From assembly GCA_964397565.1 (NCBI GenBank), contig CAYNJC010000009.1, positions 10,182-74,181 of the forward strand: DNA of 64,000 bases. Direction: 5' to 3'. The notes beneath the pieces were generated by a model. The model did not search any database and was not told where the DNA came from. It saw only the letters and a program-made list of their open reading frames with translations. Source of the DNA: an uncultured bacterium. GTDB lineage: Bacteria; Auribacterota; UBA3054; JAPLST01. The position numbers were made by a program, and so were the translations under genes. Positions 1 through 40,829 of the stretch are shown here, one piece after another; within the stretch, counting starts at the first letter, position 1, and every line of letters begins with the position of its first letter.

Positions 1-7
1 TGCCTGC

Positions 8-3000
8 GTGACGACACCGGCGTGGCTGCCGCCAGCGGCAGTCCATTGCTCGCTCCTCAATGCACCCGACGGGCCGGCGTGGGCATGCGTCCTGGGGCTG
101 GTGCAAAGCCATCTAAAGTCATTTGTCCAAGAAGACGGCTCGCTTGTGCTTGGATTGATAGAAGATTGGGCTAAGAGTGTCACATGGCAGAATCGTTATC
201 CGGAGGGAGCCCAATCCGTTGCAGCTATCGCGCACTGGCTCCTTTCCAGTTTCGACGAGTACCGGTCGAAGGATCAGCGCAAGCGCACGCTGAAGGTGAT
301 TGCCAAGATCCCTAATGAAGACACTGAACGTTTCGCCGCTCTTTTACAGGGAAGCCGCTGCGAGGATGATCGAGATCGGGCGGCAGAGGAGTTCCGGACT
401 ATTATATTTACAGGTATGGAAGGTAATGCAGCGGCTAGGGACATGCCCGACACCATAGTGTCGGCCGCAAACGACTATCTACTCTGTTCGGAAGCCGACC
501 TCCGTCATGAATGGGATTTCGCACCTGATCTGGAACTCGAGAGCCTCTTTGGCATAAAGTGTGGCAGGAGCCAAGAGTTCTTCCATGCCAGTGCCTACCG
601 CGGTCCCTTCCTTGCACTTCTGCGCCATCATCCTATGAAAGGCCTCGCATTTATTATCAACGTATTCAACCACAGTGCGGAGTACTATGCGCATCCGAGG
701 GTCCGCTCGGAGTATGTCGAACTGCCCTTCGAAATTACGCTGACTTTTTCGGATGGAACAGTGCGGACGCAGTGGTGTAACTCGCGACTTTGGAACCTCT
801 ATAGAGGGACTTCAGTCGGCCCCTATGTGATGCAATCTCTCCTTATGGCGTTAGAACACTGGCTGCTGGAGCTTGCAGAGATGCAAGCGCAAGAATTAGA
901 CTTGGTCCTGCTCAGAATTTTGCGAGAGAGCAGATCTGCCGCGCTCACCGCCGTCGTGGCGAGTATCGCGACTGCCTTCCCTGATGCGTCAGGCGAGACA
1001 CTGTTGATCCTGCTCAGATCGCCTTTGTGCATCCGACTAGATCGCGAGCGCCTCGTGCAAGAATCTCTGATAACGTCCAGGTTATTTCACTTAATGCCCG
1101 AATTTGACTCAAGGAACACCATCTACGACCAAGAACGGAAGGAATCGGATGCACGCCCCCATCGCCATGACCATCTTGAGACTGCCATCACGAATCTTCA
1201 GTTTGGACCGCTTGCCGCACGTGTGCATGAAATTCTCGATCAGCACCGGGGCGCCCTGCCGCCGAATTCGGAGCAGACGGAGGATGATCGCGCATGGCGC
1301 CTCTCAATGCACCGTATGGACCTTCGACAGTATTCCGTAGCCGAGGTCGATGCGACAGACGTGGTAGAGGCAACCGACGCCCCGTCTACCGAGCCTAAAC
1401 GACGCCGAATACGATTGGACCCGAACGAGCCGGAGCCGGACGTTAAGGAGATGATGCACAAGAGCGCCGTCATGCTCAATTCAATGATGGGAAAGATCAG
1501 CCTTCTCATGTGGGGTAATAAAGTGTTCGCTCATGAGCAACCTACGACTTACGATCCTGTGCAGTGGCAGCAGAGGCTAAAGGAAGCACGAACTGCCGGA
1601 GTCTGGGATGATAATGGCGAGGAGCACGACCTGCACCGAGGTGGCCCCGGGTTCGTCGCTGCTTTGTGCGTTCGCGATCACTGGGAGGACATGTCGGCTG
1701 ACGAACGGGATTGGTGCTTTGGCGTGGTCTGCTCGGAAGTGGAACGGAACGCAGATCACTGGAACAAACTTCCACGCATGCAACGGAATGGCATGTGTGC
1801 CGACCGCCCGTGCGCCTCGGTCATTTCGTTGCTAATCGGAAAATCGCTGTCCAAAACGCAGCGATTGCGTGTTGAGCAGACGTTTGCGACCGCACTGACC
1901 CATTCAAATGAGGAGGTGCGCTGGTACGCGGTGTGGGGCATCGCCAATCAGCTATGGTCCATCGACCGCGAACTGGCCATGCGCTGCGTGAATGCCCTTG
2001 CCAGCGAGGCGACTCTGGTCGACCAAGCGCGAGGCATAGAGGTCAAACGTCCCTACGACGAGCGTCGGCAAATCGACGCGATCCTAGCCGATGCGGCTTC
2101 AGCCGTCCGGCAGCGATTCTGGCACACGAGAGGTATCGCGGAGGATGCGTATCGGAGTCTGAACACTAAGCAATGGTTCGGCGCAGAGGCAAACGTGCGA
2201 ATCCTAGCGATCTTGAGTCGGGTGTCAACCGAGCCTGTGGCCATAGAGAGCTTCACGCGAGCTGCACACACGCTAGTTGAATGGTGGGATTCTGACGATG
2301 ACCGCAGACGTAGCCGCGACGGAGCACATCGCGAACGCAACCACGAGACTGAATCGGCGGTATACGAACTCCTCCGGAGTTTCGTAATGCGGACATCTAA
2401 AAATGCGCCCATAACAATACTCCAAGCAGTGCTCGATGCGGTTGACCGCCACCCGGGCGAGATCCACTGGTTCGTCCAGGGCCTGATCGGTGTTGAGGAT
2501 CGCGAGCCGAATACTAACCAATTTTGGCTTGTGTGGGAGCTTTTTGCCGACAGAGTCAGGCGCGCGAAGTGGCTGGCCCAGTTAGATGACGAACACCCGA
2601 CCGGGGACCAAATGGTTTCCGCCATTTTCCTGGGAACTTGGTGGAAGGAAGAGGTTCGCCACTGGAGGAGTTTAGAAGGACATCAACACCGTGTGCACAT
2701 TTTGTTTAAGAACTTGCCTCCTTGTTCTGTTGTGCTCGATGGCTATGTCAGGTTCCTGTATCATATCGGTCAGCAGTCCCTTCCTGAAGCCTTCGTCCAA
2801 ATTGCCGAGCGCCTCCAGTCAGGAGACACTCAATGGATGCTTAGAAGAACGAACACTGTTTTCATGCTTGAAGTGCTGCTCCAGCGGCACGTGTACAGCA
2901 GGCCACTGGAACTCAAGCAAAGCCCTGCGCTCCGTGACGCGGTGCTTGTGCTGCTTGATCTGCTCGTCGAAAGTGGTTCATCAGCGGCATTTCGAATGCG

Positions 3001-3034
3001 AGATGACTTCGTAACACCAGCCTCAAACACATGA
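8..3034 (+). CDS. Large alpha-helical repeat protein of unknown function, probably 5'-truncated by the window edge
   Basis: 1008-aa ORF. The frame stays open back to nt 2, so the true start may lie upstream. HEAT/ARM-like helical segments (e.g. NEEVRWYAVWGIANQLW). No Walker A, HExxH or nuclease motif seen by eye. AT-richer than the core of the window. Confidence 0.6.
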   Translation: MTTPAWLPPAAVHCSLLNAPDGPAWACVLGLVQSHLKSFVQEDGSLVLGLIEDWAKSVTWQNRYPEGAQSVAAIAHWLLSSFDEYRSKDQRKRTLKVIAKIPNEDTERFAALLQGSRCEDDRDRAAEEFRTIIFTGMEGNAAARDMPDTIVSAANDYLLCSEADLRHEWDFAPDLELESLFGIKCGRSQEFFHASAYRGPFLALLRHHPMKGLAFIINVFNHSAEYYAHPRVRSEYVELPFEITLTFSDGTVRTQWCNSRLWNLYRGTSVGPYVMQSLLMALEHWLLELAEMQAQELDLVLLRILRESRSAALTAVVASIATAFPDASGETLLILLRSPLCIRLDRERLVQESLITSRLFHLMPEFDSRNTIYDQERKESDARPHRHDHLETAITNLQFGPLAARVHEILDQHRGALPPNSEQTEDDRAWRLSMHRMDLRQYSVAEVDATDVVEATDAPSTEPKRRRIRLDPNEPEPDVKEMMHKSAVMLNSMMGKISLLMWGNKVFAHEQPTTYDPVQWQQRLKEARTAGVWDDNGEEHDLHRGGPGFVAALCVRDHWEDMSADERDWCFGVVCSEVERNADHWNKLPRMQRNGMCADRPCASVISLLIGKSLSKTQRLRVEQTFATALTHSNEEVRWYAVWGIANQLWSIDRELAMRCVNALASEATLVDQARGIEVKRPYDERRQIDAILADAASAVRQRFWHTRGIAEDAYRSLNTKQWFGAEANVRILAILSRVSTEPVAIESFTRAAHTLVEWWDSDDDRRRSRDGAHRERNHETESAVYELLRSFVMRTSKNAPITILQAVLDAVDRHPGEIHWFVQGLIGVEDREPNTNQFWLVWELFADRVRRAKWLAQLDDEHPTGDQMVSAIFLGTWWKEEVRHWRSLEGHQHRVHILFKNLPPCSVVLDGYVRFLYHIGQQSLPEAFVQIAERLQSGDTQWMLRRTNTVFMLEVLLQRHVYSRPLELKQSPALRDAVLVLLDLLVESGSSAAFRMRDDFVTPASNT

Positions 3035-3103
3035 GTTGCTGCCACGGTTAGGCCATCTGGATCGGACTTGAACAAGGCATTCAGCATTACCGAGTTACAC
3101 ACT

Positions 3104-3135
3104 GATTGTGGTGCTTACAATGCCAATTTGCACAG
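3104..3135 (+). repeat. Proximal motif of duplicated intergenic element, copy A
   Basis: gattgtggtgcttacaatgccaatttgcacag, 70 nt after the stop of the 1008-aa ORF. A near-identical string lies at 6094-6130, 64 nt after the ankyrin gene stop. Confidence 0.7.
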
Positions 3136-3220
3136 TGAGAACCCGATTCTGGTGAGGCACGGCGGCAGCGCAGCATCGAGGTCCAGGCCGCTGCCGGGAC
3201 TAGCCCAGTCAGCGCGGCAG

Positions 3221-3262
3221 TTTTCCGTTTTCGGTTTTCCGTTTTCGGTTTTCCGTTTTCGG
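3221..3262. repeat. Perfect 3 x 14-nt tandem repeat (ttttccgttttcgg), i.e. six heptamers
   Basis: Read directly: 3221-3234, 3235-3248 and 3249-3262 are identical. A related gttttcg heptamer array lies at 28291-28318. Confidence 0.95.
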
Positions 3263-3425
3263 ATCACCAACCAACCGCATTCGCCGCGCGGCGGCGGGCA
3301 GAGTGCGGAATGGGGCATGCATTGACAGTTGACAAATTGGGAAGCGGCGCTTCGCGCGCATAAGTAAATTCGTTTTTGCGGAAGGATTTTGAGAAGCGCT
3401 CACAAAGCGTACTGCACTAACGATA

Positions 3426-3450
3426 ACAAACGACAGAAAATGTCGTCTGT
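3426..3450. repeat. Dispersed palindrome ACAAACGACA-N5-TGTCGTTTGT, copy 1
   Basis: acaaacgaca gaaaa tgtcgtctgt; 10-nt arms with one mismatch; about 30 nt upstream of the -35 box at 3481. Confidence 0.8.
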
Positions 3451-3480
3451 GGCGACGCATCATGTCCGCTCCTATAGCAC

Positions 3481-3509
3481 TTGACACAACCGGCGCGCAA
3501 TGCTATGAT
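3481..3509 (+). promoter_or_regulatory. Near-consensus sigma70-type promoter
   Basis: TTGACA (3481-3486), 17-nt spacer, TATGAT (3504-3509). About 245 nt upstream of the TTG start at 3755. Confidence 0.55.
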
Positions 3510-3669
3510 TTTGAGTTCAGGTTGGGCTCCGGTCGTGCTGGAGCGCGGTCAGAAACAAGAATAATGTAACTGCTTTGTCATGCGTGCTATGCAGAATGTG
3601 TTTGAGGGCGTGCTGATGCTGCTCCGCGAGCACATGCCGCAGGATAATCCGAGCAAACAAACGCCAAGC

Positions 3670-3713
3670 GGCGCCGCTGTGCTTGCCGCACCAGCAGTGA
3701 ACAGAATATCATG
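3670..3713 (+). repeat. Distal motif of duplicated intergenic element, copy A
   Basis: Core tgccgcaccagcagtgaacagaatatcatg matches 6557-6598 with 3 mismatches in 32 nt. Ends 42 nt before the start of the next gene. Confidence 0.75.
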
Positions 3714-3754
3714 AGAACTAAGTAGAATTACTAGTTACAAATAAAGGAGTATGC

Positions 3755-4282
3755 TTGAGCTGGATTGTCTTTGACGAGCGACTCAACGAGGCGGACATGA
3801 TGGGAGCCGCTGGCCGCAGCCTGTTCGTTTGCCAGCACTTCGAGTCGACTTGCAAAGACATCGTCGCTTGGCTCTGTCTGGCGAAGGCGCTGACTGAAGA
3901 CCAGTTCGAGTTCCTTGACGACGCCCACAAAGACTATGTTCTAACGCTCCTCAAGCTCTTCCTGGGCAAGTCGATCGAGCGTCTCGGCGAAGACCATCCT
4001 GATATCCCTGCAGCGGACATCGACACTCTTAAAGCGGCCGCAAGCTCGCGCAACTATATCTGTCATGACCTCCTGCTCGATCACATCCATACCGGTTTTG
4101 GTCGACATTATGTGCGACATTGGGATGAGCGGCTGCACCGCGAGCGCGTGGTGGCTTTGGCGCAGGGAGACTATCTGGTCTCTCGATGGTCCTACGAGTT
4201 TCACGAGAAAGAATCCGGTGCCTTAATTGGGCGCGAGGGATACGTGGAGCGTGTCGTTCAATGGGTGTTCGCTGATGGCTAA
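3755..4282 (+). CDS. Small alpha-helical protein with an Rx4H motif; putative HEPN-domain RNase-like protein
   Basis: 175-aa ORF with a TTG start 5 nt after AAGGAG (3744-3749). Motif R99-N-Y-I-C-H104 (nt 4049-4066) fits the HEPN Rx4-6H signature (RNxxxH form). The size suits a HEPN domain. The fold assignment is an inference. Confidence 0.55.
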   Translation: MSWIVFDERLNEADMMGAAGRSLFVCQHFESTCKDIVAWLCLAKALTEDQFEFLDDAHKDYVLTLLKLFLGKSIERLGEDHPDIPAADIDTLKAAASSRNYICHDLLLDHIHTGFGRHYVRHWDERLHRERVVALAQGDYLVSRWSYEFHEKESGALIGREGYVERVVQWVFADG

Positions 4283-4365
4283 CAAGCGCATCGAGCGGAC
4301 GGCGAGAGGTAGACTGCGGAAGAGAGGCGGGTGACCGCCGCTCATGCGCCAGACGTTAGCTTAAG

Positions 4366-6030
4366 ATGAAAGACACCGAAAGAGAACTCTCGCCGCGATA
4401 CTACATTGCCGAAGGATCCATTTGGCTGTTCATTGCCATCTTGCTGGTCTCGCGATTTATTGGTCTGGCCCCAGACCAAGCTCTTCCTGTCCTGAGCGTC
4501 AATGTGGGCAACATCGAGTACTATCCCAGAGTTGTCGCCGCCTTGTTGCTCGCCGCAGTATTTTACATGGTAGTCGAATGGAAGCAGTCTGCACCCACGG
4601 CGCGAGACACAAACTGGCAGCGCATTCGCCTGAGTTTCACGGGGCTGTCGGCGGCGGCTTCACTGTGGATATCGTACCCTATCATTGCTCAAAACACGCA
4701 GTTCGCGGCCGTATCACCGGCATGGTATCTAGGATTCGCGGCGATAGGGTTTTTCCTCGGGTTATTTGGCTCGGTCTTGGCCTTCTCTGCACTGATGACC
4801 CGAAGTCTTGAGGAATCCAAGCGACTGCGCCTTCCACGTGTCCCCGCAGCGAGTCGAGCACAATTCTTTACATGGACACCGGCGATTCTGTTACTCATGG
4901 TTGCCTATTACGTTCTCATTTCGTTTTCGCCTCCAGTGATTCGCGGTATTGCAGGCGCTCTCGTTGTGGTTCCTTTCATCCTGATGATTGGCAAAAAATG
5001 GAAGTCACTTTATCTTGCACGCGATGACAATGGAAAGCGCATACCGTACTTACAGCGCATGGCGCGACTGAAAGAAATCTACGACTTTCACGATTACGCC
5101 TACTTCCTCATGGATGAAGGCGAACGTGCAACAAAAGAACTCGACATTCCTGCGCCTGATTCACCGCAGGCTGTCCAGCAGGCGATACAGAAGAACTACT
5201 CGGCAGCACAAGCTCAAACGCCCGTCAAGTTCCGTGCTCAGCTATTGGAGGCTATGCAACTTAGGTTCTACCCGAAGGACGGGAATCCGAGAAACTATCA
5301 TGCTGAGAACTGTGGTGTTGGAGTCTCCAATCATCAGGGCAGGAAAGAGCAGGTCCGTGTTCTTTTTATTCCGGAAGATTCAGGTGATCCCAAGAAGGAG
5401 ATGGCGATTTCCTGTGCTGCTGTGGAGAAGTATGCCGAAGAATACATTAGAGACCACGCCGACCAGCAGAACATGAGTTCCCGCAAGATCGTCTCCCACG
5501 CTGTCAACCGCGCCGTGATGGAAGCTATAGTTGACGATGGAGGACCTCGGCTTCACAGACTGGTAGAAAGCGGAGAAGAGACACGCGTTGCGGAGCTGCT
5601 CAAACAGAAACCTGATGTCAACGAGAGAGCTGAGGCCGGATGGACACCACTTCTCTATGCCTCTGCACAGGGTTATCCTCGAATAGTGCACATGCTGCTT
5701 GATGCTGGTGCGAACCCAGACATCGGCAACGCGCTCGGGATAACGCCACTCATTTATAGTGCACGATACGGGAATGCAGAAGTCTGCCAGGTCCTTCTTG
5801 ACTATGAAGCGGATGTGGATCTCCAAGACGTGTACGGCATGAGTGCTCTGATGGTGGCCTGTCGCGATGGTCATAGTGAGATTGTGAAGTTACTGTTGGA
5901 TGCAAGAGCAAATCCCAAAATCGAGACAAGGGAAGGCAAGACTGCCTTGGACTTCTGCTATGCATGTGGTCACGGCCGAATTGCCAAAACACTGAAGAGA
6001 GCTAACAAGAGCATTCAACATGCAAAATGA
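4366..6030 (+). CDS. Multi-pass membrane protein with C-terminal ankyrin repeats
   Basis: 554 aa. About six hydrophobic helices in the first ~210 aa. Four to five ANK repeats at the C-terminus (GWTPLLYASAQGYPRIVHMLLDAGANPD, GITPLIYSARYGNAEVCQVLLDYEADVD, GMSALMVACRDGHSEIVKLLLDARANP, GKTALDFCYACGH). Confidence 0.8.
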   Translation: MKDTERELSPRYYIAEGSIWLFIAILLVSRFIGLAPDQALPVLSVNVGNIEYYPRVVAALLLAAVFYMVVEWKQSAPTARDTNWQRIRLSFTGLSAAASLWISYPIIAQNTQFAAVSPAWYLGFAAIGFFLGLFGSVLAFSALMTRSLEESKRLRLPRVPAASRAQFFTWTPAILLLMVAYYVLISFSPPVIRGIAGALVVVPFILMIGKKWKSLYLARDDNGKRIPYLQRMARLKEIYDFHDYAYFLMDEGERATKELDIPAPDSPQAVQQAIQKNYSAAQAQTPVKFRAQLLEAMQLRFYPKDGNPRNYHAENCGVGVSNHQGRKEQVRVLFIPEDSGDPKKEMAISCAAVEKYAEEYIRDHADQQNMSSRKIVSHAVNRAVMEAIVDDGGPRLHRLVESGEETRVAELLKQKPDVNERAEAGWTPLLYASAQGYPRIVHMLLDAGANPDIGNALGITPLIYSARYGNAEVCQVLLDYEADVDLQDVYGMSALMVACRDGHSEIVKLLLDARANPKIETREGKTALDFCYACGHGRIAKTLKRANKSIQHAK

Positions 6031-6093
6031 CTCGCGCGACGCAGGCCATTTTGAGCATGATGCTCGACGTTAGCGCCGCGCCGCGCGGGGCCT

Positions 6094-6130
6094 ATTTGTG
6101 GCTGGCGTTTACAATTGCCAATTTGTGCAG
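6094..6130 (+). repeat. Proximal motif of duplicated intergenic element, copy B
   Basis: atttgtggctggcgtttacaattgccaatttgtgcag aligns with 3104-3135, allowing a few indels and mismatches. Confidence 0.7.
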
Positions 6131-6556
6131 AACAGCAAGACGTTTTCCTCGAACCACTCCGTCGGCGGCTGGCGAGACTATCAAAGCCAACTCCAAGCAG
6201 GGTGCGCGGCTATCCACGCTCCACACCTGCGGCGGGACAAAATTGACCAAGTCAGCGCGAAGGCAGTCTTGTGCTTTTTGTGAGTTGTTGTGGCAAAACA
6301 TGTTGTTCCTGCTGTGGTGGCGGTCAGACATCCCCAGTGCCGTCTGCAAACAAGCTCCATTACTGATTGGCAGAATCGCCGCACAGAGGCGGCTCCCACA
6401 TTCTTTAAGCATCTGCCACCGACGTATCCCGCCGCTGGCGGAACTCCATGCAGCCATAAGTCGCTGCCGTACGCCACGCGCTCCGCGCGGGGCATGCTGA
6501 CCGTGCTGATCGCGGTTGACTCCGCCGCTGCGCAATGCTTTGATAGCGCCACGTTG

Positions 6557-6598
6557 CGGCACCGTGCCTGCCGCACCACCAGTGAACAGAATGTGATG
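6557..6598 (+). repeat. Distal motif of duplicated intergenic element, copy B
   Basis: Core tgccgcaccaccagtgaacagaatgtgatg. Ends 50 nt before the brnT start. Confidence 0.75.
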
Positions 6599-6647
6599 TC
6601 GGAAGACATGGATTTGCGTTGATAGCGGTAAGAAGATATACTATGCC

Positions 6648-6923
6648 ATGCGATTCGAATGGGATCCAGACAAGGCGGCAGCGAATCTCAGAAAGCACGG
6701 TGTCTCGTTCTCCGACGCGGCAACGGTGTTTGGCGATCCGCTGTCCCACACTTTTTTCGATCCAGACCACTCAGCAACCGAGGAGCGTTGCATCACAATC
6801 GGCGTATCGCGTTCGGGGATCCTGTTGGTCGTTGCCCATACGGAACACGGCGAGCGGGTGCGGATCATCAGCGCACGGAAACCAACACGCACGGAGCGAA
6901 ACTATTATGAAGACAAGAAATAG
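6648..6923 (+). CDS. brnT: BrnT-family (DUF497) type II toxin
   Basis: 91 aa. MRFEWDPDKAAANLRKHGVSFSDAATVFGDP...RIISARKPTRTER is the typical BrnT/DUF497 pattern. Confidence 0.85.
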   Translation: MRFEWDPDKAAANLRKHGVSFSDAATVFGDPLSHTFFDPDHSATEERCITIGVSRSGILLVVAHTEHGERVRIISARKPTRTERNYYEDKK

Positions 6924-7128
6924 TACTCAGGACAAAGACACACTCCGCCCGGAATATGACTTCACGCAACTGAAGTCGCGCGGAAGGGGCAGATACGCCA
7001 AGCGCTACCGTGAAGGAACGAATCTTGTCTTGCTTGCGTCAGATGTGGCGGATGTGTTTCCCGATGACGCATCGGTCAACGAGGCGTTGCGGACGTTGAT
7101 GCGCGTGGGCCAGCTGCACGCGCGATAA
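6907..7128 (+). CDS. brnA: BrnA-like antitoxin
   Basis: 73-aa ORF starting at an internal ATG of the 6619..7128 track ORF. It overlaps the brnT stop by 17 nt. LRPEYDFTQLK...NEALRTLM resembles the cognate antitoxins encoded downstream of BrnT. Confidence 0.7.
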   Translation: MKTRNSTQDKDTLRPEYDFTQLKSRGRGRYAKRYREGTNLVLLASDVADVFPDDASVNEALRTLMRVGQLHAR

Positions 7129-7213
7129 AGGAAAACGAACCACCGAACCCGCAGGTGGAGGCGAACCCGCCTGGCGGGCCGCCTCACCTGCGGCGACACG
7201 GCAGGAGCACGTG

Positions 7214-9346
7214 ATGGCAAAATGCATTCTATTGATTTGTGTGACAGCGATCGTTATCACCGCTCAATATTCTGAAGGGGCGACCAAAGAGGCAAAGCCG
7301 ATGAGCCAGCTGCAACGACAGGGAAATCCGATCATAGACATGATTGCCGCAGGTATTCCTTTCGGTTTCGTGTACGATGGAAATGATGCGGAGACGCTCC
7401 TGCCTCAGTGGGCCAAGCGCCAGGAGACAAAGCGACTCGACAACGGACGATCCCTTACCACTGCGAGTTGGACAGACAAGAAGACCGGCCTAACTGTTAT
7501 CTGCGAGACAACCAGGTTTGAGGGGTTTCCCGCGGTTGAATGGCTCGTGCGGTTTCGCAATGACGGCGTGGCAACTACGCCGATCATTGAGAATGTCCAA
7601 GCCATGGATCTGTCGCTCGATACGCCGCTTGCGGACGGCCGTTTTGTCGTTCACCAGTTGAACGGAGCGCCTTCCGATCCGTCTGATTTCGAACCCAAGA
7701 CCGTAGCGCTTGCCCCTGGGACGAAGCATGTCATGGGCGGCGGCGGCGGGCGTTCCAGCAACAAGGATTTCCCTTTCTTCCGCGTGGACACCGGGACCGG
7801 CACACTAATCGTGGCCGTGGGCTGGTCCGGGCAGTGGAAGGCGACTCTGCAGTGCCGTCGCGGAGAGACGAAAGGAACGGAAGCCGTTGCGGTCGATCCA
7901 GCGCAGCCGGCAAACAAGGCCTCATCGAAGGAGACTGGCGGGTCACGCTCGATCCTGCATTTGACTGCCGGCCTGGAACTGACCCGTTTTCGTTTGAATC
8001 CCGGCGAAGGCGTTCGTGGGCCTCGCATGCTCGTGCTCTCCCACCAAGGCGACCCTGATCGGTCCTACGTCGTCTTCCGCCGCCTGATGCTCAAGCACTA
8101 CGTCGCCCGTGCGCACGGGGCCAAGTCGATCAGCCAACAGCCCATCGCGGCCGCAGGCGGCAAGGGTGCCGTCGAACCGCAACCCCTCTTGTTCTGCAAC
8201 ACGTGCTTCACGCGCAAGGGCGGATGGCTGAACGAGTGTAATGAGAGCAACCAGATTTCACTGATTCGAGCCCTCGCGCCGCTGGGAGTGCAGGCGGTCA
8301 TTACCGATGCCGGCTGGTTCAAAGGCGGTTGGCCCAACGGTGCCGGCAACTGGGAGTTCGACCCGCAAAAGTACCCCCGTGGCATTGGGCCGGTGGCGGC
8401 CGCCGCGAAGGAATGCGGCATGACCTACGGTCTGTGGTTCGAGCCGGAGCGGGTCGTGGTAGCCACACCGATCGACCGCGAACACGCTCCGTGGGTGCTC
8501 CGCTCCAAGGTGGCGCATGATCGACTGCTCAACTTCGGCGTGCCGGAAGCACGCCGGTTCTTCTTTGAAATTGTAGAACAGTATCTGAGACTCCCCGGGG
8601 TGGGAGTTTACCGCCAAGACTTCAACATCGACCCGCTGCCCTTCTGGCGTGAGAATGACGAACCTGACCGCCAAGGTGTCCATGAGATGAAGTACATTGA
8701 GGATCTCTATGCCTTCTGGGACATGATCCGCGCCGCCCACCCGGACATCCTGATGGAAGAATGCGCCAGCGGCGGGCGGCGCGTTGATCTGGAAACCGTC
8801 ATGCGGTTCCAGATCCACCAGAAGAGCGACTTCTGGTTCGACAACCTCGTGGATCAAGCCAGTCTCTACGCGCTTAGCCGATACTTGCCCAACGGCACTA
8901 TCTCCGTCCCGCTAGATCGACTCGACGACTACTCGTTCCACTCAGCTATGGCATCGTCCCTGATCACCGGTTGGATCGCCGACGACCCCCACTTCAACAC
9001 CGCCCGCGCCAGGCAGATCACCGACACCTATCGCTCTGTGCGTCACCTTCTGAACGCGGACTGGTACGGATTAACTCCATGGAGTCGCGACCTGGATCAC
9101 TGGCTTGTCTCGCAGTATCATCGTGACGACCTCGCTGAGGGAATGATCCTCGCCTTTCGCCGCGACAAGTGCGGACCCGCTGTGACCGTTCAACTCAAGG
9201 GCCTCACCCCCGAGAGCAAGTACGAAATCCGCTCAACCACTACGGGGCAGACGCGCCAGGCTACCGGAGCGGAGATGATGAATGGCCTGAAATTGGCGAT
9301 CCCGCAGGCGCCAGGTTCAGATTTGATCGTTTATCGGAAGCTATGA
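7214..9346 (+). CDS. Secreted GH36-like alpha-galactosidase
   Basis: Signal-peptide-like N-terminus. GMTYGLWFEPERV, YRQDFN and EECASGGRRVD motifs resemble GH36 catalytic regions. AGGAG lies 6 nt before the ATG at 7214. Confidence 0.65.
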   Translation: MAKCILLICVTAIVITAQYSEGATKEAKPMSQLQRQGNPIIDMIAAGIPFGFVYDGNDAETLLPQWAKRQETKRLDNGRSLTTASWTDKKTGLTVICETTRFEGFPAVEWLVRFRNDGVATTPIIENVQAMDLSLDTPLADGRFVVHQLNGAPSDPSDFEPKTVALAPGTKHVMGGGGGRSSNKDFPFFRVDTGTGTLIVAVGWSGQWKATLQCRRGETKGTEAVAVDPAQPANKASSKETGGSRSILHLTAGLELTRFRLNPGEGVRGPRMLVLSHQGDPDRSYVVFRRLMLKHYVARAHGAKSISQQPIAAAGGKGAVEPQPLLFCNTCFTRKGGWLNECNESNQISLIRALAPLGVQAVITDAGWFKGGWPNGAGNWEFDPQKYPRGIGPVAAAAKECGMTYGLWFEPERVVVATPIDREHAPWVLRSKVAHDRLLNFGVPEARRFFFEIVEQYLRLPGVGVYRQDFNIDPLPFWRENDEPDRQGVHEMKYIEDLYAFWDMIRAAHPDILMEECASGGRRVDLETVMRFQIHQKSDFWFDNLVDQASLYALSRYLPNGTISVPLDRLDDYSFHSAMASSLITGWIADDPHFNTARARQITDTYRSVRHLLNADWYGLTPWSRDLDHWLVSQYHRDDLAEGMILAFRRDKCGPAVTVQLKGLTPESKYEIRSTTTGQTRQATGAEMMNGLKLAIPQAPGSDLIVYRKL

Positions 9347-9443
9347 GCAAAATGAAAAGGCCGTCGCACACGGTGCCGCACTTCACCGTCGCTCCGCGCC
9401 GGAACGTGAGCAGCCCCGTTCACCAAGAGAACATGTTTCAAGA

Positions 9444-9680
9444 ATGACGATGGAGCTTGAGCGCAATCTGGGAGAGCAACCCATCGCACGCGTCATGGCG
9501 GACAATGCGCTTGCGCCTCGCGATCTCGTTGCCATCTCAACGCAGCACCTCACGTTCAAAATGGTGTCTCGTGCGTGCAAGGGCCGAAGGTTAACCCCGA
9601 ACATCAAATCCAAGATTCGCGAGGCAGTGAACACGGCAACGGCTAAGACGTACGCCATGGAAGACCTGTTCACCTACTAG
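9444..9680 (+). CDS. Small hypothetical protein
   Basis: 78-aa ORF with coding-like composition and no recognisable motif. Confidence 0.4.
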   Translation: MTMELERNLGEQPIARVMADNALAPRDLVAISTQHLTFKMVSRACKGRRLTPNIKSKIREAVNTATAKTYAMEDLFTY

Positions 9681-9834
9681 TACAATTTTCGGCCATGGTT
9701 TTTCGCCTCTGCGCGTGACATACTCGGTATGCGGTGGCAGCGCAGCATGCCTGGCGCACGGCAGCCGGTGATCGGTAACCACCGGTATTCGGTGGTTAGT
9801 GGTAGCGGCAGTCAAGTATTCGGCAATGCGGTTT

Positions 9835-9859
9835 GCAAACGACAAAACATGTCGTTTGC
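9835..9859. repeat. Dispersed palindrome, copy 2 (perfect)
   Basis: gcaaacgaca aaaca tgtcgtttgc; perfect 10-nt arms; lies between convergent genes. Confidence 0.9.
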
Positions 9860-9942
9860 GGCACTGCAATAATTAGATATTCCGTGCGCAGCGCTTCTTC
9901 GTTACTTTCTTTTGCCGCAGCATACCTTGCCATCTTTGCCGG

Positions 9943-11964
9943 TCAGGGCCGCGCGGCGGGTTGCGCTGCATTGATCACGGGCAGCTCCCTGCGGGCGGCC
10001 CACTCAGCCCAGCCGCCGTCATACCAGCGCACATTGGGATACCCCAGCAACTGCTTCAACACGAAGAACGTCTGGCTGGCCTGATGTCCCGTGCGGCAGT
10101 GGACAATGACTTCCGTATTCTTCGCGGGGATGATCTGCCGGTAGGCCGCCGCTAGAACAGCGCGGGGCTGGAATGTGACGATCTGATTGGCATTGGTGAC
10201 CACATCCTCCGTGAACGGGCGATTAATCGCGCCGGGGATATGGCCGGCCCGCGCTTCATCCGATTTCTTGCCGACGTAGAACTCGGCCGGGCGGACATCC
10301 AGGATCACGGTTCCAGGCTTGCCGATCCTGTCTGCCACGGCGCGATAGTCCACGGTGAAGACATCGGCATCCTGCCGCGGCGGGTATTGCGACGGCGTCA
10401 CCACCGGCAGCGCGGCGTCCACTGGTCGGCCTTCCTGCGCCCATGTGGCGTAGCCGCCATTCAGCACGGCATAGTTCACATGGCCCAGCCGCTCGCACGC
10501 CATGCCGGCCATTGTGGCATCCTGCAGCTTTTCGCCGGAGACAAGCACGACCGCATCGGCTGGTTGCACTCCCAGGAGCGAGAACTGGGCGGCAAGCAAC
10601 GCCGGCGGCAGAAGCTCGGCCGGGACGCCGCTGACATTGCCGCGCAGGCTCTCCATATTGAGGTTGAGGGATCCCGGAATGTGCGCAGTACTGTAGTCCG
10701 GCTGGGGCCGCACATCGATGATTTTGAGTTCCGGCGCACCCAGCCGGCCAGCCAGCCAATCTGTCCCGACCGTCTTCGGCATTGCTGCCGCTATATCCTT
10801 GGCAAGCGCGCCACGCGGTGTGCCGGTCGCGGCAGGCGTGGCAAAAAAAGCGCGCCACGCGTTAACACGGGCGGCGGCGGCCGGGCTGAGCGGTTCAGGC
10901 CGCAGCGAGACCGGCTTGAGGCAGCGATCGCGAAAGCCTTGCAAGCCGTCGGTCAAGAGATAGACATTGCCAAACCCTTGCCGCTGCAGTGAGTCGCGGG
11001 CCTGGGCCGGGTGCGTCATGCCGTTTGAGTAGAGGACGATGAGGCCTTTGTTCTTATGCGTTTGCAGGACCTCGGTCAGTTGCGCCAGCGCCACGTTGAT
11101 CGCCCCGCGGATATGGAACGCATTGAACTCCGCGGCCGGGCGCACATCCACGATCACAAGGTCCGGCGCGCCGGCCATGATGCGATCTGCCAACTCCTCG
11201 GGCTCGAGGTGGTCCTGCGCGTTGTCGACGTACGCCATGAGTGCTTGTTCGTCAAAGGATGTGGCCGCGCTTGACCGTGAGGCACCGGTGGCGGCGGGGC
11301 CGAGGACAATCAATCCGGCCGCCAGGACGACCAGCGCCAGGCTGAACGCTTTGAGGAACGGCGAGCCCAAGTAGGGCGCACGGCCCGTGCGCGTTTTCTC
11401 GGCCCATTCCGCCAGCCAGAAAGCGCCGACGGCCATGAGCGTAAAAGCGAAGATGAAACTGTTGCGCGACATGCCCAGTGTAGTATAGGCCATCTGCGGG
11501 CCGCGGTCCCCTGCCGTATAGAGTGCGCGGATCACGGGAAAGAGCTCGTTGAACAGGATGCTGCCGCCGATGGCGCCGAGCAGGAACACGAGCGCGTCGA
11601 TCCGGCCCGCGGCAAGACCGGCTGCCGCGGTGCCAGGACACCAGGCACTCATGACGAAACCCACGCCAAACAGCAGCCCGCCCACGATCTGCGCGCCGTA
11701 GATGGTCGGCATGAGGAACACCTGATCCAGGTGGATCCATCCGAACGCGAGCAGGTAGGAGAGTCCCAGCATCGCCGTGATGAGCGCGGTGAACATCACC
11801 TTCACCACCGCCATGTCGGTAAAGTAGAAGACGCCGGCCAAGCGGCGCGAACTGCTGAAGCCGGCCCGTTCCAGCGCAAAGCCGAAGCCACAGCCGATCA
11901 GCAGCGCCAGAAAAAACGCGTGCGGAGTGCCCAGGGCATTGAGTCCATATAAGGTGTTAATCAT
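9943..11964 (-). CDS. YeeE/YedE-type sulfur-transport membrane domain fused to three rhodanese domains
   Basis: Start taken at MINTLYGL (ATG 11964), which overlaps the upstream gene's stop by 8 nt. N-terminal TM region with a SAWCPGT motif. Three rhodanese-like modules; the last has the active-site loop HCRTGHQAS. Confidence 0.8.
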   Translation of the reverse strand: MINTLYGLNALGTPHAFFLALLIGCGFGFALERAGFSSSRRLAGVFYFTDMAVVKVMFTALITAMLGLSYLLAFGWIHLDQVFLMPTIYGAQIVGGLLFGVGFVMSAWCPGTAAAGLAAGRIDALVFLLGAIGGSILFNELFPVIRALYTAGDRGPQMAYTTLGMSRNSFIFAFTLMAVGAFWLAEWAEKTRTGRAPYLGSPFLKAFSLALVVLAAGLIVLGPAATGASRSSAATSFDEQALMAYVDNAQDHLEPEELADRIMAGAPDLVIVDVRPAAEFNAFHIRGAINVALAQLTEVLQTHKNKGLIVLYSNGMTHPAQARDSLQRQGFGNVYLLTDGLQGFRDRCLKPVSLRPEPLSPAAAARVNAWRAFFATPAATGTPRGALAKDIAAAMPKTVGTDWLAGRLGAPELKIIDVRPQPDYSTAHIPGSLNLNMESLRGNVSGVPAELLPPALLAAQFSLLGVQPADAVVLVSGEKLQDATMAGMACERLGHVNYAVLNGGYATWAQEGRPVDAALPVVTPSQYPPRQDADVFTVDYRAVADRIGKPGTVILDVRPAEFYVGKKSDEARAGHIPGAINRPFTEDVVTNANQIVTFQPRAVLAAAYRQIIPAKNTEVIVHCRTGHQASQTFFVLKQLLGYPNVRWYDGGWAEWAARRELPVINAAQPAARP

Positions 11965-12478
11965 GCCATTGCCTCCGTACAAACCGGGCGGTGGCATAGC
12001 CACTGGCAAAAACGCAGAGCATGAACACCAAGCTGCCGGTGAGCAGCAGGGCGCCACCGCTGAGTGCCTGGCCGGAGGTGCAGCCCTGCGCCAAGCGGCT
12101 GGCGAATCCGACGATCAATCCGCCGACCAGGGCATAGCCAAGGCGACGGCGCACGGACGCGGCAGCGCCGCGTTCCACCTGGATGCGCACGCGATGGGCC
12201 AGGAGCGCCGAGAACAGCGCCCCGACAAACGTACCGGCGAACATGAAGACAAGGTAGTAGTTGAGCGGCGTGGCACCCCAGTTCCCAAAATAGTCGCTTG
12301 CCCGCGTGTGCGGCGCCGACACGCACATGGAGACTGCCGCGCCGATGCGCGCGATGCCGCTGGACGCGCCCAAACCGGCGCCGAGGATGACATAGGAGGC
12401 CAAGAGGACAAGCCCGAGCAGTATCCCCGCCAGATACGGATTGGCATAGGGCTTGGCCGTATGCGTGTCAATTTTCAT
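11957..12478 (-). CDS. YeeE/YedE family membrane protein (half-transporter)
   Basis: 173 aa, about 4-5 TM helices, LAQGCTSGQALSG motif typical of the Sulf_transp family. Confidence 0.75.
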   Translation of the reverse strand: MKIDTHTAKPYANPYLAGILLGLVLLASYVILGAGLGASSGIARIGAAVSMCVSAPHTRASDYFGNWGATPLNYYLVFMFAGTFVGALFSALLAHRVRIQVERGAAASVRRRLGYALVGGLIVGFASRLAQGCTSGQALSGGALLLTGSLVFMLCVFASGYATARFVRRQWHD

Positions 12479-12481
12479 CGT

Positions 12482-14515
12482 TCAGCATCCTGCGCTTTTC
12501 TTTACGGGTGGTGCCGGTGTGGTCGGCGCCGGTGTGGCCGGGATCGGCGCGGGCGCCGACGGTCGCACGGCTGGCGTGGCGGCCGGCGCCCGCGCCGCCG
12601 GGAGCAAAGGCATTCCGGACTCGTCCCAATAGGCTGCCAGCCCGCCCATCAGGACTTTGATTGGCCGCGCCGTTTTCTGCGCGAGGATGCCGCCCACCGC
12701 CATCGCCAATGAGCCGTCGCGGTCAACAATCACGAGCGGAACCACGCTGTCAGAATACGCCGGATTGGCGATCACAGCCGCGATATCCACGTTGAGCGAA
12801 CCGGGCAGACTGAAGTCCGCATATTGCGCCGGCGGACGCACGTCCACGATCTCGAAGGTGCCGGGCAGATCCATCAGCATGCGTTTGAGATCCGCGGCGG
12901 CGATGCGATCGGGAAGCCTAATGGCCTGGGCCGGCGCGGCGGCCGCAGCATGTTCGGCGCCCGCGGCGCTCAGGATCGGCAAACCTGCGGCAAGCCAGGC
13001 TTCGCTGCCGCCTTCCATGTTACGCACATCCTTGAAGCCCATCTTGAGGAGCACTGATCCGCCCATGCTTGACCGATAGGCTGAGTTACACACTGTCAGA
13101 ACCGGCATGGCGCCGGCCAGGCGCTTGCCGTCGTTGAATAATTTATTGACCGGGATGTTGAGCACCGTGCCGATCCGCAGGGCCATCCATTCGGTAGGGA
13201 GGCGCACGTCCACGATGACGGGGGCCGTCCCGGCCTGCATCTGCTGATACAGAGCCTGGGGCTTGACGAGTTTCAGCGAGCCGAGGGGCAGCTTGGCCTG
13301 CTGCCACGCGTCCAGACCGCCCTGCAGGGCGCCCGCGGGCGTGTCATACCCGATGCGTTTCAAGCGGAAGGCCGCCTCGCGGACTTCGTCATCCGAACCG
13401 ACGAGAATGAACGGCGCACCCCAGGGAATCATGATGCCGGTCCACGTCTCGAAACGGCCGCGAATGCCAATGTTGATGGCGCCCTGCGGGTGCGCGGCGG
13501 CAAACGGCGCGGCGGCGCGCGTGTCAATGAGCCACGCCCCCTTCTGCGCCAGGGCGGCAACCTTGGCGGCGAGCAGCGCGGGCGGCGTCATGGTCTCCCA
13601 GTCCACGAGCGGCGGGCCGTCATGGTTCATTTTCGCATTGTGCTTGAAGTACTGCGGTGCGTCGGGCAGACCGTCAATGACGGCCATAACGTAGGAGGCC
13701 AGATCCTTGTGTTGCAGATAGGTGTTCTCGCGCCGCTGTTCGCCGATCGTGGAGACCGGCTTGTCGCTCAAATGCGCGCCGCAGAGCGAACCGGCGCCAT
13801 GCGCCGGGAAGATGCGCGTGTCGTCCGGCAGCGGGGACAGTTTGTCCTTCCACGTGGAATACCCCAGTTCGGCCAGGGCGGCCGCGCTCATGCCTTCGCC
13901 CATCAGGTCGGGCCGGCCGACACTGCCAATGAACAGTGTATCGCCGGTAAAGGCCCACGCCGGCTTTTCCGCCGCAGCGGGCGTATAGACCAGCATGCAG
14001 GTGCCGTCGGGCGTGTGACCGGGCGTCTTGATGACCACGCCACGCAGCGTGCCGAGCCGGACCGTGGCGTTGTCGGCCAGCGCGGTATGCGGATAACCGG
14101 CTTGCGTGTCCTCGTTGATCAGGATCTCGGCGCCAGTGGCCTTGGCCAGTTCCGCATGTCCAGCCACGAAGTCGGCGTGTGAATGGGTCAGGTAGACTTT
14201 CGTGATCTTGAGCCCCAGCTCCTGCGCGTCTTTTAGGTAGCGGCTGATGTCCCGGGCAGGGTCCACGATCATCGCCTCGCCACCACTGCCAAGCAGGTAC
14301 GAGTAGTGCGAGAGCACGGCCAGGTTATACTGCCGGAACACGAAGTCGGCGGTCTTCTGCTCTGTCTCCTTGACCAGTTGCACACTCGCCGCTTCGTCGC
14401 CGTGCGTGGCCGCTTCTGCGTCGCCAGCACGCGGTGATGCAGCCAACGTCCGCGTCACCAACACCCCCATGACAAGGGTTGTCAGGCCCATCCATTTCCC
14501 ATAGTTGCCCGTCAT
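12482..14515 (-). CDS. Secreted MBL-fold persulfide-dioxygenase-like protein fused to rhodanese domains
   Basis: Signal peptide. THSHADFVAGH metallo-beta-lactamase motif. Rhodanese modules (active loop CNSAYRS). Pro/Ala-rich C-terminal tail ending in Cys. Confidence 0.75.
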   Translation of the reverse strand: MTGNYGKWMGLTTLVMGVLVTRTLAASPRAGDAEAATHGDEAASVQLVKETEQKTADFVFRQYNLAVLSHYSYLLGSGGEAMIVDPARDISRYLKDAQELGLKITKVYLTHSHADFVAGHAELAKATGAEILINEDTQAGYPHTALADNATVRLGTLRGVVIKTPGHTPDGTCMLVYTPAAAEKPAWAFTGDTLFIGSVGRPDLMGEGMSAAALAELGYSTWKDKLSPLPDDTRIFPAHGAGSLCGAHLSDKPVSTIGEQRRENTYLQHKDLASYVMAVIDGLPDAPQYFKHNAKMNHDGPPLVDWETMTPPALLAAKVAALAQKGAWLIDTRAAAPFAAAHPQGAINIGIRGRFETWTGIMIPWGAPFILVGSDDEVREAAFRLKRIGYDTPAGALQGGLDAWQQAKLPLGSLKLVKPQALYQQMQAGTAPVIVDVRLPTEWMALRIGTVLNIPVNKLFNDGKRLAGAMPVLTVCNSAYRSSMGGSVLLKMGFKDVRNMEGGSEAWLAAGLPILSAAGAEHAAAAAPAQAIRLPDRIAAADLKRMLMDLPGTFEIVDVRPPAQYADFSLPGSLNVDIAAVIANPAYSDSVVPLVIVDRDGSLAMAVGGILAQKTARPIKVLMGGLAAYWDESGMPLLPAARAPAATPAVRPSAPAPIPATPAPTTPAPPVKKSAGC

Positions 14516-14545
14516 ACTATTTCGTCCTTTTTTGTTGATTGCACC

Positions 14546-40800: not shown

Positions 40801-40829
40801 GCACAATCGACATTTTATGTCGTTTGTGC
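40801..40829. repeat. Dispersed palindrome, copy 3
   Basis: gcacaatcgaca tttta tgtcgtttgtgc; 12-nt arms with one mismatch; lies between convergent genes. Confidence 0.85.

Follow-up and report, generated by a model that had tools for sequence, protein, structure and literature searches.

The first 7,128 nucleotides (nt) of a 64,000-nt stretch from an uncultured Auribacterota bacterium (contig CAYNJC010000009.1; the whole stretch is hereafter called the window) hold a short series of unusual genes of low guanine-cytosine (GC) content. Our analysis suggests that window 1-7128 is probably the right-hand end of a horizontally acquired, low-GC mosaic defence island of at least 13 kb, built from independently inherited modules and set in a genome whose GC content is about 62%. 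The island comprises four modules: an Avs4-type receptor, a HEPN-type candidate, an orphan transmembrane (TM)-ankyrin protein and a BrnT module. The main result is a correction, as the most conspicuous gene is the known receptor Avs4, cut by the window edge. An initial annotation, made from the sequence without database searches, had seen a conflict island here, and the region does carry defence and conflict genes (the Avs4-type receptor and the BrnT toxin). Its open reading frames (ORFs) and both gap lengths were also exactly right, and the features are as follows:

1..3034 (frame from base 2, 1010 codons), plus strand: 3' part of an Avs4-type STAND/NLR-like gene (PADLOC, NCBIfam, PDB 8dgf)
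3035..3754: non-coding gap 1, 720 nt
3755..4282, plus strand: 175-amino-acid (aa) all-helical protein of an unnamed family (R-N-x3-H and E-x3-K motifs, family profile, AlphaFold2 (AF2) model)
4366..6030, plus strand: 554-aa membrane protein with ankyrin repeats (Pfam Ank, AF2, hydropathy)
6031..6647: non-coding gap 2, 617 nt
6648..6923, plus strand: BrnT-family type II toxin of the RelE-fold ribonuclease family, 91 aa (PF04365)
6907..7128, plus strand: 73-aa ORF, presumed cognate antitoxin by position (17-nt overlap with brnT)

Orthologues of the island genes do not co-occur

The genes had initially been proposed as a possible single uncharacterised conflict system, for which orthologue co-occurrence was the check set beforehand. 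That check fails: of the 20 other loci fetched for the 175-aa family several are near-identical, and the 12-13 distinct ones contain no TM-ankyrin or Avs4 gene (0); the 6 other loci of the TM-ankyrin family likewise contain no Avs4 or 175-aa gene (0). Because the orthologues do not co-occur, we read the region as a mosaic island and not as one new system.

Low GC content extends upstream of the window

Window 1-7128 has a GC content of 54.9%, compared with 61.9% for 7129-64000. Outside the island, 1-kb windows average 61.9% GC (standard deviation 2.5%), a single one of 56 is as GC-poor as the richest island window, and the lowest value reached by any 7.1-kb window is 60.2%. GC at third codon positions (GC3) is 0.61 in the large ORF, 0.66 in the 175-aa gene, 0.54 in the TM-ankyrin gene, 0.64 in brnT and 0.65 in the 73-aa ORF, against 0.77-0.79 in two core genes and 0.71 in the adjacent GH36 gene. 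The foreign composition proposed for the region is therefore borne out by both GC and GC3. The contrast is real, but amounts to about 7 points and not to the 15-20 first suggested: the single-line counts behind that estimate (27/60 and 44/60) were correct, but both 60-nt lines are unrepresentative.

An exact-protein look-up of the 175-aa gene returned metagenome contigs from several assemblies, here called L001, L002 and L003. L001 is 99.9% identical to window 1-14282, a single 14-nt gap being the only difference, and L002 and L003 are 100% identical to window 1-6496. As had been suspected, the island reaches upstream of the window: L001 supplies the 725 missing N-terminal residues of the large ORF together with further DNA of low GC (42-53% in the 4 kb preceding the Avs4 gene). 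Since low GC continues upstream in L001, the island must span at least 13 kb, of which at least 6 kb lie upstream of the window, and its left border falls beyond the start of L001. In the most upstream part of this contig (L001 1-4071) lie the gene for a beta-propeller protein of 720 aa with SBBP/Reg_prop repeats and two small ORFs (140 and 181 aa), for which PADLOC gave marginal matches only (Lit 0.0085; PD-Lambda-3_A 0.0021). The other two contigs, L002 (SRR8437274) and L003 (SRR8437247), come from independent sequencing runs and terminate at the same base, window 6496. This shared end just ahead of the BrnT module hints at a repeat at that position, or at structural variation within the population.

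The large ORF encodes the sensor of an Avs4-type receptor

The ORF at 2-3034 is open at the window start, and its missing 5' 2.2 kb, encoding effector and NTPase, lies upstream. Its product had been described as a giant protein of no recognisable kind, a description that does not hold: the fragment matches the Avs4 sensor domain in PADLOC (Avs4, E=3.8e-100, profile positions 592-1569 of 1570), in NCBIfam (NF041815, 'AVAST type 4 anti-phage nuclease Avs4', E=7.6e-106, positions 603-1577 of 1579) and in the PDB (8dgf_A, 'ATP-binding protein Avs4', E=2.7e-49, residues 608-1587). By homology, we assign the window part to the predicted C-terminal helical sensor domain of an Avs4-type STAND receptor.

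The complete gene is present in L001 (4087-9294, 1735 aa). Its product matches PADLOC Avs4 at 2.9e-154 (residues 297-1728, profile positions 157-1569 of 1570) and 8dgf_A at 5.9e-77, with residues 311-1735 aligned to chain residues 188-1587. A STAND P-loop NTPase is present between effector and sensor: the L001 protein carries a Walker A motif (GPAGSGKS) at about 352-359, outside the window, and an nSTAND1 match (E=1.7e-5) just short of the gathering score, and homologues carry PF20703 and PF20720.

The N-terminal domain is of a different kind. Its approximately 300 aa are unrelated to the effector of the E. coli protein (EcAvs4), the 8dgf alignment beginning only at chain residue 188, and PDB and Pfam searches with the first 308 aa gave no match. 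Relatives of this domain head proteins with nSTAND1 or nSTAND3 NTPases, and plasmid-borne relatives are found in proteins annotated NACHT, TPR or beta-propeller from Burkholderia, Rhizobium, Streptomyces and others. Conserved in the domain (L001 4087-5010) are G46, G49, E53, Q84, E86, D93, D94, Q112 and K114; the E...D-D...Q-x-K residues among them, taken by themselves, suggest a PD-(D/E)xK-like nuclease. A Cap4-type identity was considered and rejected, as a profile of 25 homologues matched only the Avs4 NTPase in the PDB.

In the characterised Avs4, the sensor is reported to recognise the portal, which is conserved among phages (Gao et al. 2022; structure 8DGF). From its homology to the E. 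coli protein, the helical sensor encoded here would likewise bind a conserved phage structural protein, upon which the NTPase would oligomerise; oligomerisation would in turn activate the N-terminal effector and abort the infection.

An unnamed family of small HEPN-type candidates

The 175-aa gene has a TTG start with AAGGAG 6 nt ahead of it, and its product carries the sequence RNYICH, the RNxxxH motif for which it had been singled out. Searches of Pfam, NCBIfam, PADLOC (E<=0.1) and PDB sequences gave no significant match; the PDB sequence and profile matches that did appear were dismissed as chance, for instance tektin (0.0015) through the string 'AKDARN'. A word-indexed search yielded 15 clusters of relatives, and an exhaustive profile search 388 representatives at E<=1e-3 (clusters at 50% identity), nearly all of 160-220 aa. 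Across 88 members, down to about 21% identity with the query, only G20, R99, N100 and H104 are invariant, with E30 conserved in at least 90%. The 15 close members additionally share E30, K34, C26, Q27, G138 and D139, as well as a WSYEFHEKESG loop.

HEPN active sites are marked by Rx4-6H, in which the R is followed by a polar residue (mostly N, D or H), and by an acidic residue further upstream, typically in E-x3-[KR] (PMC3710099). Both features are present in the 175-aa family, as R99-N100-x3-H104 and E30-x3-K34. When the 88 members were scanned singly against Pfam, HEPN_Apea was matched by 18 (best 0.0017) and DUF4145 by 16 (best 2.2e-4), followed by HEPN_RiboL-PSP (3/88), HEPN_Swt1 (2/88) and HEPN_Cthe2314 (2/88), all of these sub-threshold; recurrent weak PADLOC matches were to Cas13-ApeA, RTasHEPN and Csm6. 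The AF2 model is all-alpha, with a predicted local distance difference test score (pLDDT) of 85.6. The early guess of an HEPN-like protein is thus upheld by signature motifs and recurrent sub-threshold profile matches, but not by a fold match. With strong motif evidence and no matching fold, we regard the protein as a candidate HEPN-superfamily RNase, putatively metal-independent, of an unnamed family. Such a protein would dimerise to form a composite R-N-x3-H active site, and might cleave RNA once induced or triggered during infection.

The contexts of the family are diverse:

Window locus: the gene follows Avs4
L006: after ThsA (SIR2/STALD) and ThsB (TIR), before PhdYeFM/PIN
L007: after an NB-ARC/TPR/CSD STAND gene
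L008: divergent from type I HsdR
L009: after DUF3800
L022/L023: before REase-ARP
L025-29: after a trypsin-like protein
L019: beside Obg

An all-against-all BLASTP of neighbours from 21 loci revealed no conserved partner of the HEPN gene, returning antisense artefacts, same-organism duplicates and one related pair of type IIG restriction-modification (R-M) genes. This pair (54% identity) lies further upstream of the HEPN-family gene in L006 (2-4432) and L007 (2-6822). Between the shared genes, L006 holds Thoeris ThsA/ThsB and L007 the NB-ARC/TPR/CSD STAND gene, an arrangement that resembles a defence hotspot with a variable slot. No relatives of the 175-aa family were found in IMG/VR.

That a small HEPN protein can be a single-gene defence is shown by RAZR, a zinc ribbon joined to DUF4145 (PMC13017515). 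We tentatively raise the possibility, which we rate as less probable than its alternatives combined, that the 175-aa family consists of widespread, unnamed, minimal stand-alone HEPN RNases acting as single-gene anti-phage or abortive-infection effectors, triggered, in the absence of a sensor domain or antitoxin, either through induced expression or by direct action of a phage component, with the TM-ankyrin protein possibly a second single-gene effector at the membrane.

An orphan membrane protein with ankyrin repeats

The 554-aa protein matches Pfam Ank_2 at 6.8e-27. Its AF2 model (pLDDT 84.2) contains six helices in residues 10-216, two linker helices, an alpha/beta domain (288-391) in which helices flank a sheet of five strands, and five ankyrin repeats (395-553). 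Hydropathy indicates five strong membrane helices and one weaker, in line with the six TM segments and four to five repeats originally proposed. Lysine- and arginine-rich loops lie at 144-160 and after 216, so both termini, and hence the ankyrin domain, are predicted to be cytoplasmic.

The N-terminal 390 aa define 32 clusters, nearly all of the same architecture of about 550 aa. Residues 1-390, comprising the six-TM and alpha/beta parts, gave no matches in sequence searches, and Foldseek with the model returned DARPin and ankyrin structures only, leaving the TM and alpha/beta domains unmatched. The ankyrin part matches PDC-M72A (5.2e-25, PADLOC) and MzaA (3.6e-20, NCBIfam), as well as Legionella Ank effectors. 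Membership of PDC-M72 was rejected: the match is confined to ankyrin residues 373-532, and no other island protein matches the PDC-M72 models.

Six other loci carry the gene, in contexts unrelated to one another:

L010: between cobalamin genes
L011: among insertion sequence elements, a group II intron reverse transcriptase and DruA
L012: beside a cold-shock gene
L034: after ribonucleotide reductase genes
L036: in a Bro-N/HTH_17 region
L037: a further locus

In L010 the homologue and several small unrelated genes (8616-15731) stand between cobU/cobT and cobS, a block that looks like an insertion into an operon-like cluster. The TM-ankyrin proteins appear to be a rare orphan family and might serve as membrane-anchored binders or effectors, with a putative link to defence.

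A BrnT toxin and its 73-aa neighbour

BrnT/BrnA is a type II toxin-antitoxin with its prototype in Brucella abortus. The pair had been annotated here under both names, of which the first is genuine: the 91-aa protein matches PF04365 (BrnT_toxin) at E=9.6e-28 and 96.8 bits, against a cut-off of 34.5, and aligns over its full length to PDB 7vd7_A ('toxin', E=5.2e-17). 'BrnA', by contrast, is a positional label only, as no BrnA model was matched. The 73-aa ORF is also called as a gene in L001; it gave no match in Pfam (E<=10), NCBIfam or PADLOC (E<=0.1) and chance-level ones in the PDB (best E 0.19), and has one tblastn relative, in a cyanobacterial plasmid. To our eye, its C-terminal half reads as ribbon-helix-helix-like.

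The two long gaps and their repeats

Gap 1 contains a tandem repeat of a 14-nt unit at 3220-3262 (GTTTTCCGTTTTCG, 3.1 copies, 100% by Tandem Repeats Finder). The 14-nt difference between window and L001 lies in this gap and is most likely a copy-number change of the repeat. The gap also holds a palindrome (AACGACA-N-TGTCGT; (C)AAACGACA-N5-TGTCGTTTG) resembling repetitive extragenic palindromic (REP) elements at 3429-3449, found again at 9838-9858 and, on the minus strand, at 40804-40824. Three copies in the window compare with 0 expected by chance, and the two sites inspected (3429 and 9838) are intergenic; the palindrome might serve as an operator or belong to the REP-type elements of the host. 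A sigma-70-like promoter, TTGACA-17-TATGAT (11/12 match), follows at 3481-3509. In gap 2, an element of about 85 nt (6369-6455) with internal GC hairpins resembles the intergenic minus-strand segment 59120-59196 (E=1.4e-7, 72-77% identical), and may be a small mobile or regulatory element.

The two gaps share a 52-nt direct repeat, 81% identical, at 3662-3713 and 6547-6598. The first copy stops 41 nt short of the HEPN start codon and the second 49 nt short of that of brnT. Both contain a promoter-like TTGCCG-18-TATCAT, and the 24-nt core of the repeat is found nowhere else in the window. The repeat is either a duplicated promoter region or a cassette junction, and we favour neither. An integron cassette with attC sites was rejected on inspection, as no integrase and no attC-like R''/R' cores were seen.

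Other candidates in the gaps were likewise set aside. For structured RNA, Rfam (E<=1) returned nothing relevant in 1-10000, and fold z-scores were -0.68 (gap 1) and +0.06 (gap 2). The ORFs 6027-6500 and 6290-6622 in gap 2, tried as genes or pseudogenes, had no Pfam match at E<=10, and the frame of a minus-strand ORF in gap 1 changes with the 14-nt indel. A tblastx comparison of the gaps with all fetched loci found no pseudogene.

Directly after the island, window 7211-9346 encodes a GH36/melibiase-like glycosidase with a hydrophobic N-terminus (59.6% GC, GC3 0.71), followed on the opposite strand by a rhodanese, sulfur-transporter and metallo-beta-lactamase-rhodanese cluster (9943-14515).

Alternative readings of the locus

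We consider it highly improbable that all of the genes (Avs4, 175-aa, TM-ankyrin and possibly BrnT with its antitoxin) form one new system in which the small proteins are accessory effectors of the STAND sensor. They do share one strand and one low-GC block, and some Avs families are known to rely on separate effector genes (Avs2-trypsin-MBL). However, the Avs4 protein has an N-terminal effector domain of its own, the 720-nt gap with its own promoter-like site separates it from the next gene, and at the loci of two close HEPN homologues (68% and 53% identical) the preceding genes are those of Thoeris or an NB-ARC STAND, with no TM-ankyrin gene present; repetition of the combination in none of the 12-13 HEPN loci and 0/6 TM-ankyrin loci largely refutes this reading. 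On a smaller scale, the HEPN and TM-ankyrin genes could be a two-gene cassette (3714-6546), an RNase with a membrane partner, inserted between the 52-nt copies. Consistent with this, the genes share a strand, are separated by 83 nt and are bracketed exactly by the 81%-identical repeats, the 24-nt core of which is unique to the two sites in 64 kb, and two independent assemblies break at 6496, just before the second repeat. Yet the pair was seen at none of the other loci of the two families, the repeats enclose no recombinase gene, and they sit 41-49 nt before start codons and are promoter-like, such that a duplicated regulatory region explains them equally well; we judge the cassette to be quite unlikely.

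Two further readings concern the origin of the DNA and the role of the HEPN protein. The locus might be native, its lower GC arising from the amino-acid make-up of odd genes and from long intergenic DNA, and the modest difference of 7 points, the lack of a flanking integrase or tRNA gene, and the host-type small repeats in the gaps (palindrome 3429, 85-nt element 6369), which imply long residence in the genome, all fit such an origin. GC3, though, is largely independent of protein composition and stands at 0.54-0.66 versus 0.77-0.79; moreover, every island gene family is patchy across phyla in unrelated contexts, and GC drops further upstream, making a native locus very unlikely. As for the 175-aa HEPN protein, it could be a toxin with its antitoxin encoded as a small ORF or RNA within the 720-nt upstream gap, which offers tandem repeats and a 44-codon ORF (3580-3714). 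HEPN RNases often act as toxins and require a partner that neutralises them (PMC3710099), and the unusually long leader here includes a tandem repeat as well as a strong promoter-like site 245 nt ahead of the gene. Against this, upstream spacers at other loci measure only about 40-190 nt and hold no conserved ORF, the leader has neither excess structure (z = -0.68) nor an Rfam match, and the threefold 14-nt repeat precedes the promoter-like site and probably accounts for the 14-nt difference between assemblies; this arrangement seems unlikely to us. A type III toxin-antitoxin in particular was rejected, the sole array (14 nt, 3.1 copies, 3220-3262) lying 490 nt ahead of the gene, farther out than the promoter-like site, and not being seen at other loci of the family.

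Several observations also weigh against the mosaic defence island that we favour, or against the identity of its modules. Because no integrase, tRNA or empty site was found at or near the island, the case for acquisition is one of composition. The closely spaced HEPN and TM-ankyrin genes may be co-transcribed at this locus. Against NF041815 the 1010-aa fragment scores 354.9 bits, far short of the equivalog cut-off of 1500 bits; judged by its sequence, the Avs4-type protein would be no equivalog but a divergent member of the family, and may respond to something other than the portal. For the 175-aa protein, no profile match to any HEPN family is significant, no Foldseek match of the confident model in PDB or BFVD was better than E~1, and several family loci adjoin housekeeping genes (Obg, SecA, GlmS-like). 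Finally, the 73-aa ORF matches no antitoxin family.

Significance and comparison with known systems

The gene set is that of a typical mosaic defence island, in which novelty is limited to new members and families within known kinds; current concepts are unchanged, and each family adds to the catalogue of defence-island cargo. Three of these additions stand out. The compact HEPN-type family, for which Pfam, NCBIfam and PADLOC have no model, has a sharply conserved putative active site and is found next to Thoeris, STAND or R-M genes at several of its loci, making it a cheap and well-defined candidate for defence and toxicity screens. The second, at the N-terminus of the Avs4-type protein, is an effector domain without a name, shuffled between Avs4, NACHT, TPR and propeller proteins. 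The third is the rare 6TM-ankyrin orphan, for which there is no functional lead.

The TM-ankyrin protein resembles PADLOC PDC-M72A, MzaA and 'Ankyrin' in that its ankyrin repeats score against these models, but the likeness covers the repeat region only (373-549) and the partner genes of those systems are absent. The BrnT module shares with BrnT/BrnA a toxin that matches PF04365 and the solved BrnT-family structure 7VD7, and a toxin-first operon with overlapping genes; it differs in the downstream 73-aa protein, which has no Pfam or NCBIfam match and may be an analogous yet unrelated antitoxin.

With the defence HEPN RNases (ApeA, RAZR, AbiD/F and HEPN-MNT), the 175-aa protein has in common the R-[N]-x3-H and E-x3-K motifs and an all-alpha make-up. 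The weak recurrent matches to HEPN_Apea and DUF4145 recall ApeA and RAZR, and several loci of the family adjoin R-M and other defence genes. In contrast to these systems, it is a bare domain of about 175 aa that lacks the N-terminal beta-rich domain of ApeA, the zinc ribbon of RAZR, an MNT partner and an ATPase, and its family has in addition an invariant G138-D139 and a highly conserved SYEFHEKESG loop.

The closest correspondence is to Avs4 of E. coli (PDB 8DGF). The window itself holds the sensor part only, the N-terminal 300 aa or so differ from the EcAvs4 effector, an Mrr-type nuclease, and the portal is no more than a putative trigger here. Homology nevertheless covers the STAND NTPase and the C-terminal helical sensor in its entirety, the PADLOC and NCBIfam Avs4 models are matched nearly full-length beyond the effector, and as in Avs4 a single large gene lies within a defence island. 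Effector swapping is normal in Avs families, and a non-Mrr effector is compatible with Avs4 membership.

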